From a virus (taxonomy: Duplodnaviria; Heunggongvirae; Uroviricota; Caudoviricetes): DNA of 5,946 nucleotides. Positions 88-4,750 of the stretch are shown here, one piece after another (the stretch's first letter is position 1; the number at the start of each line of letters is the position of its first letter). The DNA lies in the IMG/VR virus record IMGVR_UViG_2667527717_000003. One strand, given 5' to 3'. The position numbers and the translations under genes are program-made. A model generated the notes under the pieces. The model was not told the origin of the DNA, searched no databases, and saw only the letters and a program-made list of their open reading frames with translations.

Positions 88-1200
88 TTGGGAAAATGGC
101 AGAGTGANNGCACNNNNNGNNNGNNNGAGCATCGGCATAAGAAGATTGCTGAGACGACAGGCTATAAGCCCGGTGCGGGACGTATTATCGAGCGTTTCGA
201 CGGGCGGTTTGAGATAAACGAATTTTATATGCCTGAGCATCCACGTACAGCGGATACAAGTAAGGTGTCCACGTTCCTTAATCATATGGCGTATCTGGTA
301 CCTGATGCCTGGCAGCGCGAGTTTTTCATCGCCCGTCTGGGGTGGATGGTTCAGCGTCCGGAGCGTCGATGCCCGATTTCTATTCTGCATGTGGCTTCCG
401 CACATGGTACGGGCAGAGGATGGGTCAGCCAGTTAATGGAGCGCGTGCTTGGTCCGTGGAACTGTGCTCGTACTCGCATGAAGATCCTGTGCGATAACCA
501 GTTCCATGACTATCTGTACAATACGCTTCTATGCACCATTGACGAGGTGCGCGAAAATGATAAGCGGTATGAGGTGAACGATAAGATCCGTGACGTGCTG
601 ACAGAACCACGGTTTGAAGTGAACCGCAAATATGGCAGCAAAAAAACGATGGATATATACACCGGCTTTCTGTTCTACACCAACCACTTTGATGCGCTGG
701 CGCTGCCAGAGGAAGACCGACGTATCGCTGTGCTGGGGGGCCCTGACTTCGCCGCAACTGAAGAGCATTACGCCAGCCTGTACGGTGCGCTAAGCGACAG
801 CGACTTTATCGCCCAGGTGTACTGGTATCTGATGGGCGTTGACCTGTCTCGCTTTAACTGGCAGCGCGCCCCCGAGACGAAAGAACGCCTTCTGATGATT
901 GAAAGCAATAAGAGCGATGTGGAGGCTGCTCTTATTGAAATCCTGGATAATCCGCCTGTGCCAGCAATGACTTATCAACAAATTGTTAACGCAATACTGG
1001 CAGAAGCAGGAATGGATGTAGAAATTAACCAGAAGCATATTACTCGCATTTTGAAAGAAAGAACAAAGCGGGAACCCGTACGCGTAAAAATTGACGGGTT
1101 TGTATATAGGATTTGGATTCTTGTAAAAAATAACGATTTCAGCAACGAAGAATTGCGCGAAATATATAAATCTTGCGAAATTTTGCAATCTGGATTGTAA
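88..1200 (+). CDS. P-loop NTPase with SF3-helicase-like motif order (D5 / P4-alpha primase-helicase C-terminal domain-like) and an AT-rich C-terminal putative DNA-binding domain; probable replication initiator/helicase. 5' boundary unresolved.
   Basis: 370-codon ORF ending at TAA 1198-1200. Glycine-rich loop HVASAHGTGRGW followed by a Walker-B-like hhhhDE block (LLCTIDEV) and a motif-C-like block (IRDVLTEPRFEVNRKYGSKKTMDIYTGFLFYTNH). Codon usage looks coding from ~128 onward. Start is uncertain: TTG at 88 has no obvious RBS, the first ATG is at 229, frame 1 has a TAA at 4-6, and frame 2 is open from the window start to 217 with N-masked bases at 108-127 in between. Confidence 0.6.
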   Translation: MGKWQSXXXXXXXEHRHKKIAETTGYKPGAGRIIERFDGRFEINEFYMPEHPRTADTSKVSTFLNHMAYLVPDAWQREFFIARLGWMVQRPERRCPISILHVASAHGTGRGWVSQLMERVLGPWNCARTRMKILCDNQFHDYLYNTLLCTIDEVRENDKRYEVNDKIRDVLTEPRFEVNRKYGSKKTMDIYTGFLFYTNHFDALALPEEDRRIAVLGGPDFAATEEHYASLYGALSDSDFIAQVYWYLMGVDLSRFNWQRAPETKERLLMIESNKSDVEAALIEILDNPPVPAMTYQQIVNAILAEAGMDVEINQKHITRILKERTKREPVRVKIDGFVYRIWILVKNNDFSNEELREIYKSCEILQSGL

Positions 1201-1831: not shown

Positions 1832-2254
1832 ATGCGTGATATTCGACTGGTTTTAGAGCGATGGGGGGGCTGGGCTGCGAGCGAAGGTTGCAGTGTCTAC
1901 TATCCACCTGTTTCCGCTGGATTTAAGAATCTGCTACCTGCAACGCAAGCCGGGCGGCTGAAGTGCAGTGACAATGACGGTCTGATCATCAGCTCTGCTA
2001 TGAACTGCCTGAAGAAAAAAGATCCGTACCTGTGTACGCTCCTTGAGTGGCATTACATCCAGGCGATGCCTGTGAGGGCTATGGGTGTGAAGCTCGGCGT
2101 ATCACACACTCAAGTTCTGAAGAGGCTCCAGGCTGCAGAGGGATTTATCGACGGCTGCCTGGCTATGCTGGACGTGGTTCTGGAAATGGATCAAGCAGTT
2201 CAGTCAAAGCCTAAGGCTATCAGGACTTTGCGAAGGAGCTGCCCGGCGGCATAA
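1832..2254 (+). CDS. Q: late-gene antitermination protein Q (QuuD / small-Q family of lambdoid phages)
   Basis: 140 aa. N-terminus MRDIRLVLERWGGWAA, AGFKNL, and C-terminal LQAAEG...LAMLDVVLEMD follow the pattern I recall for E. coli prophage QuuD-type Q proteins (MRDIQMVLERWGAWAA...AGFKGL...LQKAEG...ALDIRLEMD). GAGG at 1820-1823 sits 8 nt before the ATG. Position immediately upstream of the lysis cassette is canonical. Confidence 0.85.
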   Translation: MRDIRLVLERWGGWAASEGCSVYYPPVSAGFKNLLPATQAGRLKCSDNDGLIISSAMNCLKKKDPYLCTLLEWHYIQAMPVRAMGVKLGVSHTQVLKRLQAAEGFIDGCLAMLDVVLEMDQAVQSKPKAIRTLRRSCPAA

Positions 2255-2660
2255 TATCCAGTAATCAATCACGTAAGGGAATCAGATGGTATTCAGGATT
2301 GCCGTAAACACCTGACGGCTTCAGGTATCAAGGTAAGATAAAAAATAGTTGTGGAATTCCAAAAAGCCGATTAGCCTGATATCTGTTGAAAACAGTTCAT
2401 CACGAAGAGGCTTCCGCAAGGGGGCCTTTTTTATTGCCCCATTCTGGGGAAAAGTTAATAAAACAGGGCTTTCGCTGCGAAAAAACGCTATGCAGTTTTT
2501 GCCCTTTTTTATGCACCTTTTATTCACTCGAATTTCGTCATTCTGGACCACTTAAGTTGATTAAATAGGCCTTTCATCGCAAATCTATTGCGAGCGGGGA
2601 TCGTGTGGTTCCTATAACGTACATTATGTTAAATAACTTCCTTTTTTAACAAATTTAACA
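2255..2660 (+). promoter_or_regulatory. Q-to-holin intergenic late-control region, expected to hold the late promoter (PR'-equivalent) and the Q utilisation (qut) site; exact promoter not resolved
   Basis: ~400 bp AT-rich non-coding DNA between Q and an intrinsic terminator. Several weak sigma70-like candidates, e.g. CTGACG(2312-2317)-N16-TAAGAT(2334-2339), TTGCCC(2434-2439)-N16-TAATAA(2456-2461), TTGCCC(2499-2504)-N16-TATTCA(2521-2526). Only small TTG/GTG-initiated ORFs without RBS in this stretch. Confidence 0.35.
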
Positions 2661-2686
2661 AGGTTCGCTATGGCGAACTTTTTTTG
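2661..2686 (+). terminator. rho-independent terminator (tR'-equivalent, the likely target of Q antitermination)
   Basis: Stem GGTTCGC (2662-2668) / GCGAAC(T) (2673-2679) with 4-nt loop TATG, followed directly by a T7 run (2679-2685). The reverse complement lacks a T tract, so it is + strand only. It lies ~100 nt upstream of the holin start, as in lambda PR'-tR'-S. Confidence 0.7.
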
Positions 2687-2786: not shown

Positions 2787-3128
2787 ATGAAAATGCACAA
2801 TGCTCCTCATTCCTGGCCTGACTTACTGGAACTCTTACAAAGTTGGTGGCGTGGAGATACGCCGTTGGGCGCAGTGGTTATGTCAATTGTTATGGCTGGC
2901 TTGCGCATTGCCTATTTTGGCGGTGGCGGCGGCTGGAAACGAAAAACGCTTGAGATTTTGCTCTGTGGTGCTCTGACGCTGACTTTTGCATCCGCTCTTG
3001 AGTATGTCGGATGGCCTAAATCGCTTTCTGTTGCCATTGGTGGTGGTGTTGGGCTGATCGGTGTCGATGCTATTCGTGGGGCTGCAATGCGAGTAATCGG
3101 TAACAAGTTTGGTGGCTCTAAGGAGTAA
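2787..3128 (+). CDS. holin, class I (three predicted TM segments) with lambda-S-like dual-start motif Met-Lys-Met; the longest ORF would start at ATG 2769
   Basis: GGAGGTGGG (2775-2783) lies 3 nt before ATG 2787; ATG-AAA-ATG at 2787-2795 gives MKM. Three hydrophobic stretches (LGAVVMSIVMAGLRIAYFGG, TLEILLCGALTLTFASALEY, SLSVAIGGGVGLIGVDAI) and a charged C-terminus. Stop TAA 3126-3128 is 3 nt before the endolysin ATG. Confidence 0.85.
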   Translation: MKMHNAPHSWPDLLELLQSWWRGDTPLGAVVMSIVMAGLRIAYFGGGGGWKRKTLEILLCGALTLTFASALEYVGWPKSLSVAIGGGVGLIGVDAIRGAAMRVIGNKFGGSKE

Positions 3129-3131
3129 TTC

Positions 3132-3608
3132 ATGCAGACACTAAATTCCCAACGTAAAGCTTTCCTGGATATGGTGGCATGGTCAGAAGGAACGGATAAC
3201 GGGCGACAACCGACACGTAATCACGGTTATGACGTTATCGTCGGAGGTGAGTTGTTCACTGATTACTCCGATCACCCTCGCAAACTTGTCACGCTAAACC
3301 CGAAGCTTAAATCAACAGCCGCAGGCCGGTATCAGCTTCTTTCACGCTGGTGGGATGCCTACCGCAAGCAGCTTGGCCTGAAAGATTTTTCGCCAGAAAG
3401 TCAGGACGCTGTGGCGCTGCAGCAGATTAAAGAGCGTGGCGCTTTACCGATGATTGACCGTGGCGATATTCGTCAGGCAATCGACCGTTGCAGCAATATC
3501 TGGGCGTCGTTACCTGGTGCAGGTTACGGTCAGTATGAACATAAAATCGGTGACCTGATTTCCAGGTTTAAAGATGCTGGTGGGGTGGTAAATGAAGCTG
3601 ACTTATAA
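3132..3608 (+). CDS. R: endolysin, lambda R-type lytic transglycosylase
   Basis: 158 aa. From memory, the translation is nearly collinear and near-identical with phage lambda R (shared NQRKAFLDM.AWSEGTDNGRQ.TRNHGYDVIVGGELFTDYSDHPRKLVTLNPKLKST.AGRYQLLSRWWDAYRKQLGLKDFSP.SQDAVALQQIKERGALPMIDRGDIRQAIDRCSNIWASLPGAGYGQ), including the catalytic Glu in WSEGT. AAGGAG RBS at 3120-3125. Confidence 0.95.
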   Translation: MQTLNSQRKAFLDMVAWSEGTDNGRQPTRNHGYDVIVGGELFTDYSDHPRKLVTLNPKLKSTAAGRYQLLSRWWDAYRKQLGLKDFSPESQDAVALQQIKERGALPMIDRGDIRQAIDRCSNIWASLPGAGYGQYEHKIGDLISRFKDAGGVVNEADL

Positions 3609-4116
3609 GATTGTCATCGCGGCATTTTTCTTCTCTGCCTTTGGGGCGCTCGTCTGGTCTGCAAACCATTACCACAGCAAGTATCAGGCAGAAAAGTTGC
3701 GGGCTGATAAAGCGGAAGGTGAAGCTGAATATCAAGGGAAAGTGATAGCTAATCAGGCATTAAACTTCAATCGTTTTAACCAGATAGCAGAAAACGCAAG
3801 CCGATTAAATTCTCTGGTCGACATCGGTCACGAGAAGACAGTCATCAAATACCGTGAGGTTCTGCTCCGTGAAAAGAACTGTGATTTCCCTGTTCCTGCT
3901 GATATTGCTGTCGGGTTGCTCAACTACGCGAACCGTTTACGCGCCAGCGCATTGCACGCCGATTCCGGGTACATTGACCCAGCCGGTGATCGTGCCACTA
4001 CCACCAGAACGTTGACATATTGCCAGGCTGTTCTGTGGATTAACCCATTGTTGGCAGCCATCGAGAAGGCGAATAACCAGTTGGCTGGTGTCCGACAAAT
4101 AGAACAGTCCCGGTAA
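3592..4116 (+). CDS. Rz: Rz-type inner-membrane spanin (i-spanin)
   Basis: 174 aa. Start overlaps the endolysin 3' end by 17 nt. N-terminal TM segment (IVIAAFFFSAFGALVWSA), a long charged, helical-looking middle region, and a C-terminal periplasmic segment with Cys. Position after the endolysin and the embedded Rz1 frame support the call. Confidence 0.85.
   Translation: MKLTYKIVIAAFFFSAFGALVWSANHYHSKYQAEKLRADKAEGEAEYQGKVIANQALNFNRFNQIAENASRLNSLVDIGHEKTVIKYREVLLREKNCDFPVPADIAVGLLNYANRLRASALHADSGYIDPAGDRATTTRTLTYCQAVLWINPLLAAIEKANNQLAGVRQIEQSR
3869..4015 (+). CDS. Rz1: Rz1-type outer-membrane lipoprotein spanin (o-spanin), embedded in the +1 frame of Rz
   Basis: Not in the ORF track (48 codons). 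GTG at 3869 with GAGG (3856-3859) ~9 nt upstream. Translation MKRTVISLFLLILLSGCSTTRTVYAPAHCTPIPGTLTQPVIVPLPPER: positive n-region, hydrophobic core, lipobox LSGC, then a Pro-rich mature part with a second Cys. TGA at 4013-4015, entirely inside Rz. Confidence 0.7.
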   Translation: MKRTVISLFLLILLSGCSTTRTVYAPAHCTPIPGTLTQPVIVPLPPER

Positions 4117-4177: not shown

Positions 4178-4750
4178 ATGACTAAGAAGCTGAAAGCAAA
4201 ACACGAGGTGTTTTGTCGCGAGTTTCTTGTCGATCTGAATGCTACACAAGCAGCTATTCGCGCAGGCTACGTCTCCAGGCGAGCACATGTTACGGGGGCT
4301 GAACTATACGGTAAACCTGAGATACGCGCCCGTATTAACGAGCTAAAGCAGGAGCGTATTGATCAACTGGGCATTGATGCGAATTATGTGCTGATGCGAC
4401 TGGTTGAGATCGACAGGCTCGATGTGGCTGACATCCTAGAGGACGATTTAAGTATTAAGCCTCTGTCTGCGTGGCCGGAATCGTGGCGTCGGTACCTGAG
4501 TGGATTTAACCTCGCTGAAATGTTTGAGGGGCGAGGAGATGACAGAGAAATGGTCGGGATCCTTAAAAAGATTAAGTGGCCTGATAAGGTTAAAAACCTT
4601 GAGTTGCTTGGGCGTCATGTTTCTGTTCAGGCGTTTAAAGACAACGTCAAAAATGAAGTGACTGGCGCTGATGGAGGACCAGTCAGAACAGAAATTACCA
4701 ACTTAACGCCGGAGCAGGCTGCAGAGGCGTATAGAAAAATGATGGGCTAA
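4178..4750 (+). CDS. terS: terminase small subunit (Terminase_2 / P27-like TerS family)
   Basis: 190 aa. N-terminal [24 protein letters not shown] matches the hallmark I recall for this family ([22 protein letters not shown]). Sits directly upstream of a TerL gene, with stop TAA 4748-4750 two nt before the TerL ATG. Confidence 0.85.

Follow-up and report, generated by a model that had tools for sequence, protein, structure and literature searches.

In phage lambda, the gene of the outer-membrane spanin subunit (o-spanin), Rz1, lies wholly inside that of the inner-membrane subunit (i-spanin), Rz, in its +1 frame, and the two are the last genes of the S-R-Rz/Rz1 lysis cassette. Lambda Rz has an N-terminal membrane segment, a helical periplasmic domain and two Cys, while lambda Rz1 is made with a lipobox signal and has a mature part that is short, rich in Pro and provided with one extra Cys. 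In the lambda Rz/Rz1 system, disulfides between molecules produce covalent homodimers. Other pairs, such as P2 LysB/LysC and those of phages SfIV and SfV, are overlapped and not embedded. In the spanin survey of Kongari et al. 2018 (PMC6139136), an embedded group (HK225, ZF40, mEp237) appears in both the i-spanin and the o-spanin tables, SfIV and SfV form an i-spanin group and stand in the Mu-family o-spanin group, and it is stated that no family combines the embedded architecture with an overlapped or separated one. We report here on an Rz/Rz1 pair carried by a virus-derived stretch of 5,946 nucleotides (nt), IMG/VR record IMGVR_UViG_2667527717_000003, hereafter called the window. This pair is like the lambda pair in every feature of layout just listed for Rz and Rz1, and is different from it in having no detectable sequence homology to it.

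The +1 frame open reading frame inside Rz

The stretch 3869-4015 is almost certainly the Rz1 o-spanin gene of a two-component spanin, embedded in Rz, and the last element of the holin-endolysin-spanin cassette of an Escherichia coli lambdoid prophage. The open reading frame (ORF) reads GTG AAA AGA ... CGT TGA and is contained entirely in the 174-codon Rz ORF. It begins 277 nt downstream of the Rz start at 3592, and since (3869-3592) mod 3 = 1, it is read in the +1 frame. Its product is (M)KRTVISLFLLILLSGCSTTRTVYAPAHCTPIPGTLTQPVIVPLPPER, with a predicted cleavage between (M)KRTVISLFLLILLSG and CSTTRTVYAPAHCTPIPGTLTQPVIVPLPPER, that is, a signal MKRTVISLFLLILLSG before the lipobox Cys. This signal satisfies the PROSITE PS51257-type rule, which makes it a predicted signal peptidase II (SPII) signal by a rule-based call rather than by a trained predictor. 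The mature peptide contains seven Pro (22%) and a second Cys at its position 13. Its +2 residue is Ser, and not the Asp that acts as inner-membrane retention signal; across the mature peptides of the listed homologues it is S or T. A scan of NCBIfam returned only generic lipoprotein matches below threshold for Rz1, and none for Rz. Coordinates of all features are collected in Table 1.

Comparison with annotated spanin families assigns the pair, on sequence grounds, to the HK225/ZF40/mEp237 embedded family and not to the lambda family. With Pfam cut-offs of 27.9 bits for PF06085 (Rz1) and 25.4 bits for PF03245 (Phage_lysis), the window Rz1 gave no PF06085 match at E <= 1 and the window Rz no PF03245 match, whereas lambda Rz1 and lambda Rz, used as positive controls, scored 72.2 and 183 bits. 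BLASTP alignments to lambda Rz and Rz1 were limited to the hydrophobic membrane and signal segments, and the mature peptide has 32 amino acids (aa) versus 40 aa in lambda Rz1. Rz1 matched the profile phrog_456 (E 7.5e-7). The Rz protein shares 64.7% aa identity over 80% of its length with HK225 Rz, and 60.1% with that of mEp237. The same embedded ORF is found in HK225, where it reads GCSNTRTVYVPAQCTPIPTDLTQPMIVPLPPAQ followed by a stop. HK225 differs from the window in two respects: the first 46 codons of the window Rz, which encode the membrane segment and the first helix, are of SfIV type, and the partner holin and endolysin are not the same, HK225 having a DLP12-type lysozyme.

Neither the Rz1 gene nor its family is new; the gene is missing from the nearest records only. 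Phage LLS has a homologous ORF under the label o-spanin, and Serratia phage BZS1 has one labelled Rz1. The "putative lipoprotein Rz1 precursor" of E. coli O103:H2 12009 (P0121, 53 residues) includes the entire window Rz1 after the start codon, with 98% BLASTP identity. The phage record ON470582, which is 100% identical, and the E. coli record NZ_AP022003 of RefSeq, on the other hand, name Rz "endopeptidase Rz" or "hypothetical protein" and have no feature over the +1 ORF. A PGAP record that we inspected calls Rz a "hypothetical protein" and leaves Rz1 out, and 20 of the 20 listed E. coli matches have only "hypothetical protein" across the Rz span.

The original prediction, drawn from the sequence alone, was that of an embedded o-spanin starting at 3869: a 48-codon +1-frame ORF wholly inside Rz, encoding a lipoprotein signal with lipobox LSGC and a Pro-rich mature peptide with a second Cys, the whole pair being different from lambda Rz/Rz1. 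Its coordinates and description are correct on the sequence, and the annotated homologues agree with the o-spanin assignment. The sequence properties of the o-spanin class (Summer et al. 2007, Kongari et al. 2018) are all present, namely a predicted SPII signal, no Asp at +2, a position embedded in an i-spanin gene of a lysis cassette and a frame maintained by selection.

Table 1. Features of the Rz/Rz1 locus and of its surroundings (positions in the window)
Feature	Position	Strand	Remarks
Rz1 o-spanin gene (almost certain)	3869..4015	+	GTG start, 48 codons and TGA (4013-4015); embedded in Rz, +1 frame
Rz1 signal peptide (predicted), 16 aa	3869..3916	+	n-region MKR (basic KR), h-region TVISLFLLILL (11 residues), lipobox L-S-G then Cys17
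Mature Rz1 (predicted), 32 aa	3917..4012	+	lipidation Cys 3917-3919, second Cys 3953-3955; conserved TRTVY and PLPP motifs
Shine-Dalgarno-like GAGGT	3856..3860	+	8 nt upstream of GTG 3869
Alternative in-frame GTG	3854..3856	+	53-aa precursor, identical mature product; less likely start
Rz i-spanin gene, 174 aa	3592..4116	+	phrog_214 "Rz-like spanin", E 1e-58
Rz C-terminal segment, aa 139-174 (RTLTYCQAVLWINPLLAAIEKANNQLAGVRQIEQSR)	4006..4113	+	homologous to C-terminal half of LysC-type long o-spanins
Holin, lambda S family	2787..3128 (longer ORF from 2769)	+	Pfam Phage_holin_3_1 E 1.2e-27; TIGR01594 E 7e-40
Endolysin, lambda R type	3132..3608	+	phrog_90; overlaps Rz start by 17 nt
SfIV-like mosaic module	2826..3730	+	blastn 88% to Shigella phage SfIV; most of holin, endolysin, Rz codons 1-46
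HK225-like mosaic module	3742..4104	+	blastn 76% to HK225, 74% to phage LLS; Rz from codon 51, all of Rz1
DUF5906 protein (3' part)	88-1200		annotated in identical RefSeq locus
Antiterminator Q	1832-2254		
Small terminase	4178-4750		

Conservation of the +1 frame

Conservation was followed in 77 loci with Rz homologues, one genome per species, all from Enterobacterales, with Rz protein identities to the window from 39% to 71%. Two of them (L079 and L080) match Rz 140-174 only and are broken by masked N runs; they were left out, which makes 75 informative loci. In 73 of the 75, the +1 frame holds an intact lipoprotein ORF whose product has a lipobox and a strongly conserved mature peptide. Lack of conservation of the +1 frame in homologous Rz genes, named at the outset as one of two observations that would count against the gene, is not what these loci display; the other, absence of a predicted lipoprotein signal, is contradicted by the rule-based call. 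In the two others, a stop codon interrupts the Rz1 signal peptide (L027:2697-2804) and a frameshift fuses Rz to the Rz1 tail (L071:2330-2803). The consensus of the mature peptide is C-S-x-T-R-T-V-Y-V-P-A-Q-C-T-P-I-P-x-x-L-T-x-P-x-x-x-P-L-P-P, and of 76 sequences measured, the window included, 73 have a mature length of 32 aa.

The variability of each codon position was then taken from a codon alignment of 69 unique Rz genes, in which Rz position 3 corresponds to Rz1 position 2, and Rz position 1 to Rz1 position 3, the wobble position. Before the overlap (Rz aa 45-92), the entropies at Rz positions 1, 2 and 3 were 0.97, 0.76 and 1.54, and after it (Rz aa 142-172) they were 0.58, 0.31 and 1.46. 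Within the overlap (Rz aa 93-141) the values were 0.98, 0.46 and 0.54, and in the part that encodes mature Rz1 (Rz aa 110-141) they were 1.16, 0.48 and 0.48. Inside the overlap the most variable position is therefore Rz position 1, the wobble of Rz1. The codon phase changes within a codon or two of the Rz1 start, and the change is sharp at the Rz1 end (residue 141/142). A chance ORF is ruled out because this pattern is that of dual coding. It indicates that the +1 frame is under purifying selection, and that it is more constrained than the Rz frame across the mature part of Rz1. The position of the ORF also counts beyond chance, as the ORF sits in the distal part of an i-spanin gene, in its +1 frame, and that gene comes immediately after the endolysin.

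Translation start of Rz1

The sequence upstream of the Rz1 start is ATACCGTGAGGTTCTGCTCC. Its GAGG (3856-3859) lies 9 nt before the GTG at 3869, and 52 of 76 loci have a 4-nt Shine-Dalgarno core at the equivalent distance. Of 67 unique loci, 50 have a start codon in alignment with 3869 (GTG in 41, ATG in 5, TTG in 4). A real Rz1 might nevertheless start at the upstream GTG 3854 and be made as a 53-aa precursor, as in E. coli O103:H2 12009, whose P0121 is annotated from such a start. This GTG is the first start after the preceding stop in the ORF listing, and the PROSITE-type rule is also satisfied from it, with the Cys at position 22. We consider this unlikely: a start codon is kept at the 3854-aligned position in only four of the 67 unique loci, no Shine-Dalgarno-like motif was seen upstream of 3854, and the annotation of phage LLS uses the 48-codon form. 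The start at 3869, as first proposed, is thus better supported. Either start yields the same mature lipoprotein, and function is unaffected by the choice.

Proposed function of the pair

The partner Rz has a hydrophobic N-terminal segment at about residues 6-23, and its Cys97 and Cys144 are invariant in 25 aligned homologues (alignment A1). In the same alignment, the homologues fall into two alternative N-terminal types, each comprising the membrane segment and the first helix. An AlphaFold model of Rz contains helices at 2-75, 81-94, 103-123 and 143-173, and a linker at about 124-142 that is unstructured (low confidence). Some Rz homologues carry precomputed DUF2570 matches. Homologues at 52% identity were also present in records that bear the names of the Stenotrophomonas phages BUCT708 and BUCT709 and of the Elizabethkingia phage EKP1; these hosts are far outside Enterobacterales, in which all other members were found, and this could be due either to a wide host range or to a questionable host assignment.

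By analogy with lambda Rz/Rz1, Rz1 would act in outer-membrane disruption, in a complex with its i-spanin. Translation would start at GTG 3869 behind the GAGG motif, and the precursor would be exported, lipidated on Cys17 and cut by signal peptidase II between Gly16 and Cys17. With Ser and not Asp at +2, the 32-aa Pro-rich lipopeptide should be carried by the Lol system to the inner leaflet of the outer membrane. There it may bind the periplasmic C-terminal part of Rz, itself anchored in the inner membrane, in a complex that would span the periplasm. The one extra Cys of Rz1 and the two invariant Cys of Rz (C97 and C144) mirror the disulfide-homodimer pattern of lambda and might serve in the same way. 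Once peptidoglycan has been removed by the holin and the R-type endolysin, the complexes would fuse or disrupt the outer membrane and complete lysis.

Some observations weigh against this assignment. The Rz1 signal scored 18.5 bits with Pfam LPAM_1, slightly below the cut-off of 20. The lipobox pattern alone is not beyond chance, because dinucleotide-shuffled windows contain 0.34 ORFs each that satisfy the rule (at least one such ORF in 29.5% of the shuffles), and because a spurious ORF in an alternative frame of the holin gene satisfies it as well. The second Cys of Rz1 is replaced by Ser in three loci from Kosakonia and Enterobacter (L045, L048 and L049; VYVPAPSVPIPP), so that the presumed intermolecular disulfide of Rz1 is dispensable in part of the family and its role is not universal, which makes the disulfide part of the proposed function uncertain. 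Finally, the Rz model has a predicted local distance difference test score (pLDDT) of 52.9; it was used for secondary structure only, and is silent on the Rz-Rz1 interface.

The spurious match just mentioned is the ORF 2800-2976 (+), which lies in an alternative frame of the holin gene (...QLLWLAC then ALPILAVAAAG...). Its "mature" part is hydrophobic and overlaps the coding sequence of the holin membrane segments, and the match is evidently due to chance.

Rz1 could also be intact but sit in a defective prophage and never be used for lysis. Among 5,426 complete E. coli genomes, 124 carry the locus on the chromosome, and decayed copies exist elsewhere, as the nonsense codon of L027, the frameshift of L071 and a frameshift chimera described below (P0122) illustrate. 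Nonetheless, the Rz region is 100% identical to four records deposited as phage genomes (vB_EcoM-606R2, -689R2, -611R5 and -683R1), and all cassette genes in the window are intact, which makes disuse of the gene distinctly unlikely. As for a chance open frame in Rz with an accidental lipobox-like pattern and no functional protein, the lipobox-rule ORFs of shuffled windows, the match in an alternative frame of the holin gene and the lack of annotation in the nearest records speak for it, but it is effectively refuted by conservation of the ORF down to 39% Rz identity with a mostly constant mature length, by the codon-phase switch, and by profile homology to bona fide o-spanins (E 3e-18, see below).

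Relationship to the overlapped LysC-type spanins

We lean towards the view that the HK225-type embedded pairs and the overlapped LysB/LysC-type pairs (SfIV/SfV, Mu-type o-spanins and many viral contigs) form a single family with two architectures, and that a net one-base change of frame at the Rz1 end turns one architecture into the other. Such a change would move a conserved helix of about 35 aa from the outer- to the inner-membrane subunit. A first indication comes from the Pfam family LysC (PF23793; 69 positions, cut-off 27 bits). The window Rz1 aligns with profile positions 1-33 (16.9 bits) and Rz 128-173 with positions 25-68 (14.7 bits); neither alone reaches full-length LysC membership. 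A natural frameshift chimera from E. coli (P0122, 78 aa, named "Rz1-like lysis system protein LysC" in its source), made of an Rz1 N-terminus and an Rz C-terminus, scores 36.6 bits over the full profile. A phmmer search with this chimera in 1.84 billion representative proteins retrieved proteins of 75-110 aa that aligned over both halves.

Among these is a diverse set of long o-spanins with a common layout, namely the lipobox Cys, xTRTVYVP, PIPxxLT, and then LTYG..LL.AL..CN.DK..IR.IE, and these are true members of Pfam LysC, with scores of 52-57 bits. Searches with two of them found 148 and 33 confirmed stretches on viral contigs that encode relatives. They come from overlapped pairs, in which the i-spanin has 126-133 aa and the o-spanin starts in its +1 frame and ends about 140-160 nt past its stop. 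Such a pair is annotated in SfIV (i-spanin 1201-1593, o-spanin 1412-1753 of L278). The SfIV i-spanin stops at 130 aa and falls below threshold on Pfam DUF2570; the SfIV o-spanin, of 113 aa as annotated, bears the C-terminal helix and extends past the i-spanin stop by the length just given. The Cys positions are also different, with "QCN" in the SfIV o-spanin helix versus "LTYC" in the window Rz, and the long SfIV-type o-spanin has no Cys at mature position 13, unlike the window Rz1.

Profile-profile comparison by hhalign aligned Rz 1-129 with residues 1-129 of the 130 of a short i-spanin (probability 98.7%, E 2e-16), Rz1 4-48 with 4-48 of a long o-spanin (99.0%, E 3e-18), and Rz 135-174 with 43-82 of the 90 residues of a long o-spanin (91.8%, E 7e-7). 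For the last of these, the score was 42.9, versus 10.4 +/- 2.5 (maximum 19.5) in 100 column shuffles, and a reversed control was null. Both kinds of o-spanin have 32 mature residues before LTY, and the two halves adjoin without a gap at the Rz1 stop, with an offset of one base between their frames. The LTYC of the window, read in the Rz frame, starts at 4012 and has one base in common with the last Rz1 sense codon (4010-4012); LTY lies 95 nt from the Cys codon, versus 96 nt in SfIV. As these comparisons show, the window pair is colinear with overlapped LysB/LysC-type pairs such as that of SfIV, with a net one-base frame difference at the Rz1 stop. Rz 1-129 corresponds to a short i-spanin, Rz1 to the first 48 residues of a long o-spanin, and Rz 139-174 to the C-terminal helix of the latter. 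Here this helix is thus part of the inner-membrane subunit, while in the overlapped relatives it belongs to the outer-membrane one. The bridge to this helix (Rz aa ~124-141) is the most variable stretch of Rz and is predicted to be unstructured, as expected for a recruited linker.

A group of viral contigs combines sequence motifs of the embedded type with an overlapped architecture (L279, positions 1194-1749, and 13 related contigs, L280-L292). The single o-spanin of L279 is 53% identical to the window Rz1 (E 2e-11), and 50% identical over 36 aa to the C-terminus of the window Rz (E 5e-9), with which it shares the motifs L(T/S)(Y/F)..VLW..LL..IEKAN.QL..IR.IE; it has six extra residues (DSDGKT) before LSF. 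The 125-aa i-spanin of L279 shares 35% identity with Rz 6-125 (E 1e-20). This clade is a candidate intermediate between the embedded and the overlapped architectures. The long form is far more widespread, being found in P2-like phages of several Proteobacteria and among the Mu-family o-spanins of the Kongari survey, and this distribution suggests that the embedded form is probably the derived one.

P2 LysC, the namesake of Pfam LysC (64.9 bits), has the profile of which one half is covered by the window Rz1 and the other by the Rz C-terminus. Nevertheless, BLASTP of the window Rz and of the P0122 chimera against P2 LysB and LysC detected no pairwise similarity, and the relation to P2 appears only at the profile level and via SfIV-type intermediates. 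The related loci obtained with P2 LysC as query were all copies with 95% identity or more, of no use for an independent profile.

Several points tell against a single family in two architectures. The stop of the short i-spanin is some 10 codons short of the junction, which places the two forms more than one mutation apart, and at least one further change, at the i-spanin stop, is required between them. Several of the "long" proteins of the phmmer search (P0122, P0149, P0150 and P0152) are sporadic frameshift or gene-call chimeras and not real genes. The idea that long o-spanins occur commonly among close HK225-type relatives was rejected, since the homologues of P0122 are mainly partial or frameshifted Rz fragments. 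P0152 was likewise rejected as an intermediate: its loci are ordinary embedded pairs and the protein is a gene-call or frameshift artefact. No contigs encoding P0152 or P0182 are on record. Two further short database "proteins", P0135 and P0138, are similar artefacts.

The likeness of the Rz C-terminal helix to LysC could in principle be due to convergence, or to a shared amphipathic-helix composition, and not to descent by frame change. The segment is short (about 36 aa) and helical, its hhalign probability is 91.8% and not above 99%, and the P0122 chimera lacks pairwise BLAST similarity to P2 LysC. Yet the real score lies about 13 standard deviations above the column-shuffled controls while the reversed control is null, the L279 match comes with shared motifs, the halves meet without a gap exactly at the Rz1 stop, and homology extends to the flanking parts of the i-spanin and the o-spanin. 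Convergence is therefore very unlikely. Programmed -1 frameshifting at the Rz1 end, by which a long LysC-like o-spanin would also be made and both forms coexist, was rejected as extremely unlikely: a -1 slip at CGT 4010-4012 would indeed place LTYCQAVLW immediately after PLPPER, in a product colinear with natural long o-spanins, but the stretch 4000-4015 (CCACCAGAACGTTGA) contains no slippery heptamer of the X XXY YYZ type, no stimulatory structure was noticed (no search aimed at one was made), and the helix is already provided by Rz.

The preferred reading of one family in two architectures was also compared with published work. In the literature searched, no description of a link between embedded and overlapped spanins was found, an absence there that is not proof of novelty.

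Lysis cassette and mosaicism

The window corresponds to the late region of a lambdoid prophage of E. coli, with the gene order holin, endolysin, Rz and then small terminase. The endolysin shares 88% aa identity with lambda R over all 158 aa, as its description as lambda-R-like had implied, whereas the holin is only 26% identical to lambda S. At the DNA level, the match to lambda is confined to 3150-3544, and the surrounding sequence is divided between the SfIV-like and the HK225-like modules of Table 1. The junction between these lies at 3731-3741, inside Rz at about codons 47-50, just before a conserved VIAxQAFNFNRFNQ block. This location agrees with the existence of two alternative N-terminal types in alignment A1. 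The mosaic nature of the cassette, which had been proposed from the contrast between a lambda-like endolysin and an unlike Rz/Rz1, is thus borne out by the DNA segments; the implied boundary between R and Rz is not, since the junction is within Rz itself. In HK225, the same spanin family accompanies a DLP12-type lysozyme; in LLS, its partners are a pinholin and a signal-arrest-release (SAR) endolysin. A mosaic cassette of this kind is ordinary for lambdoid phages.

Other features of the window were recorded in passing. The holin ORF from 2769 begins MAEVGSMKMHNAP; the RefSeq start is at the MKM motif at 2787, an arrangement that resembles the S107/S105 dual start of lambda. In the identical phage record the holin starts far later, as an 82-codon coding sequence (locus 3289-3537) that looks too short. 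A terminator-like hairpin of 9 pairs followed by TTTTTGTATT is located at 2660-2681 (+), between Q and the holin, where one would expect a lambda-like tR' that Q reads through. The hairpin scan gave no more sites than in shuffles, so that 2660-2681 is a consensus match only. Rfam and tRNA scans of the window found nothing. Thirteen N bases, masked or unresolved, occur in four runs (108-109, 114-118, 120-122 and 124-126) inside the DUF5906/primase-like ORF.

Significance

The Rz1 gene of this locus is one more embedded o-spanin overlooked by annotation pipelines, and as such it matters little. For practical purposes, a member of this Rz family (phrog_214, partly DUF2570) should prompt a search for a 48-codon ORF in the +1 frame. 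The frame relation to the overlapped LysC-type spanins is the only part that is possibly new to specialists, and the sequence comparisons argue well for it. If true, it would give a concrete route to the embedded architecture, a question left open by the 2018 spanin survey, and it would mean that the spanin complex tolerates an interface helix on either subunit. The helix, carried by different subunits and one base of frame apart, may then be regarded as a natural experiment on the spanin subunit interface.

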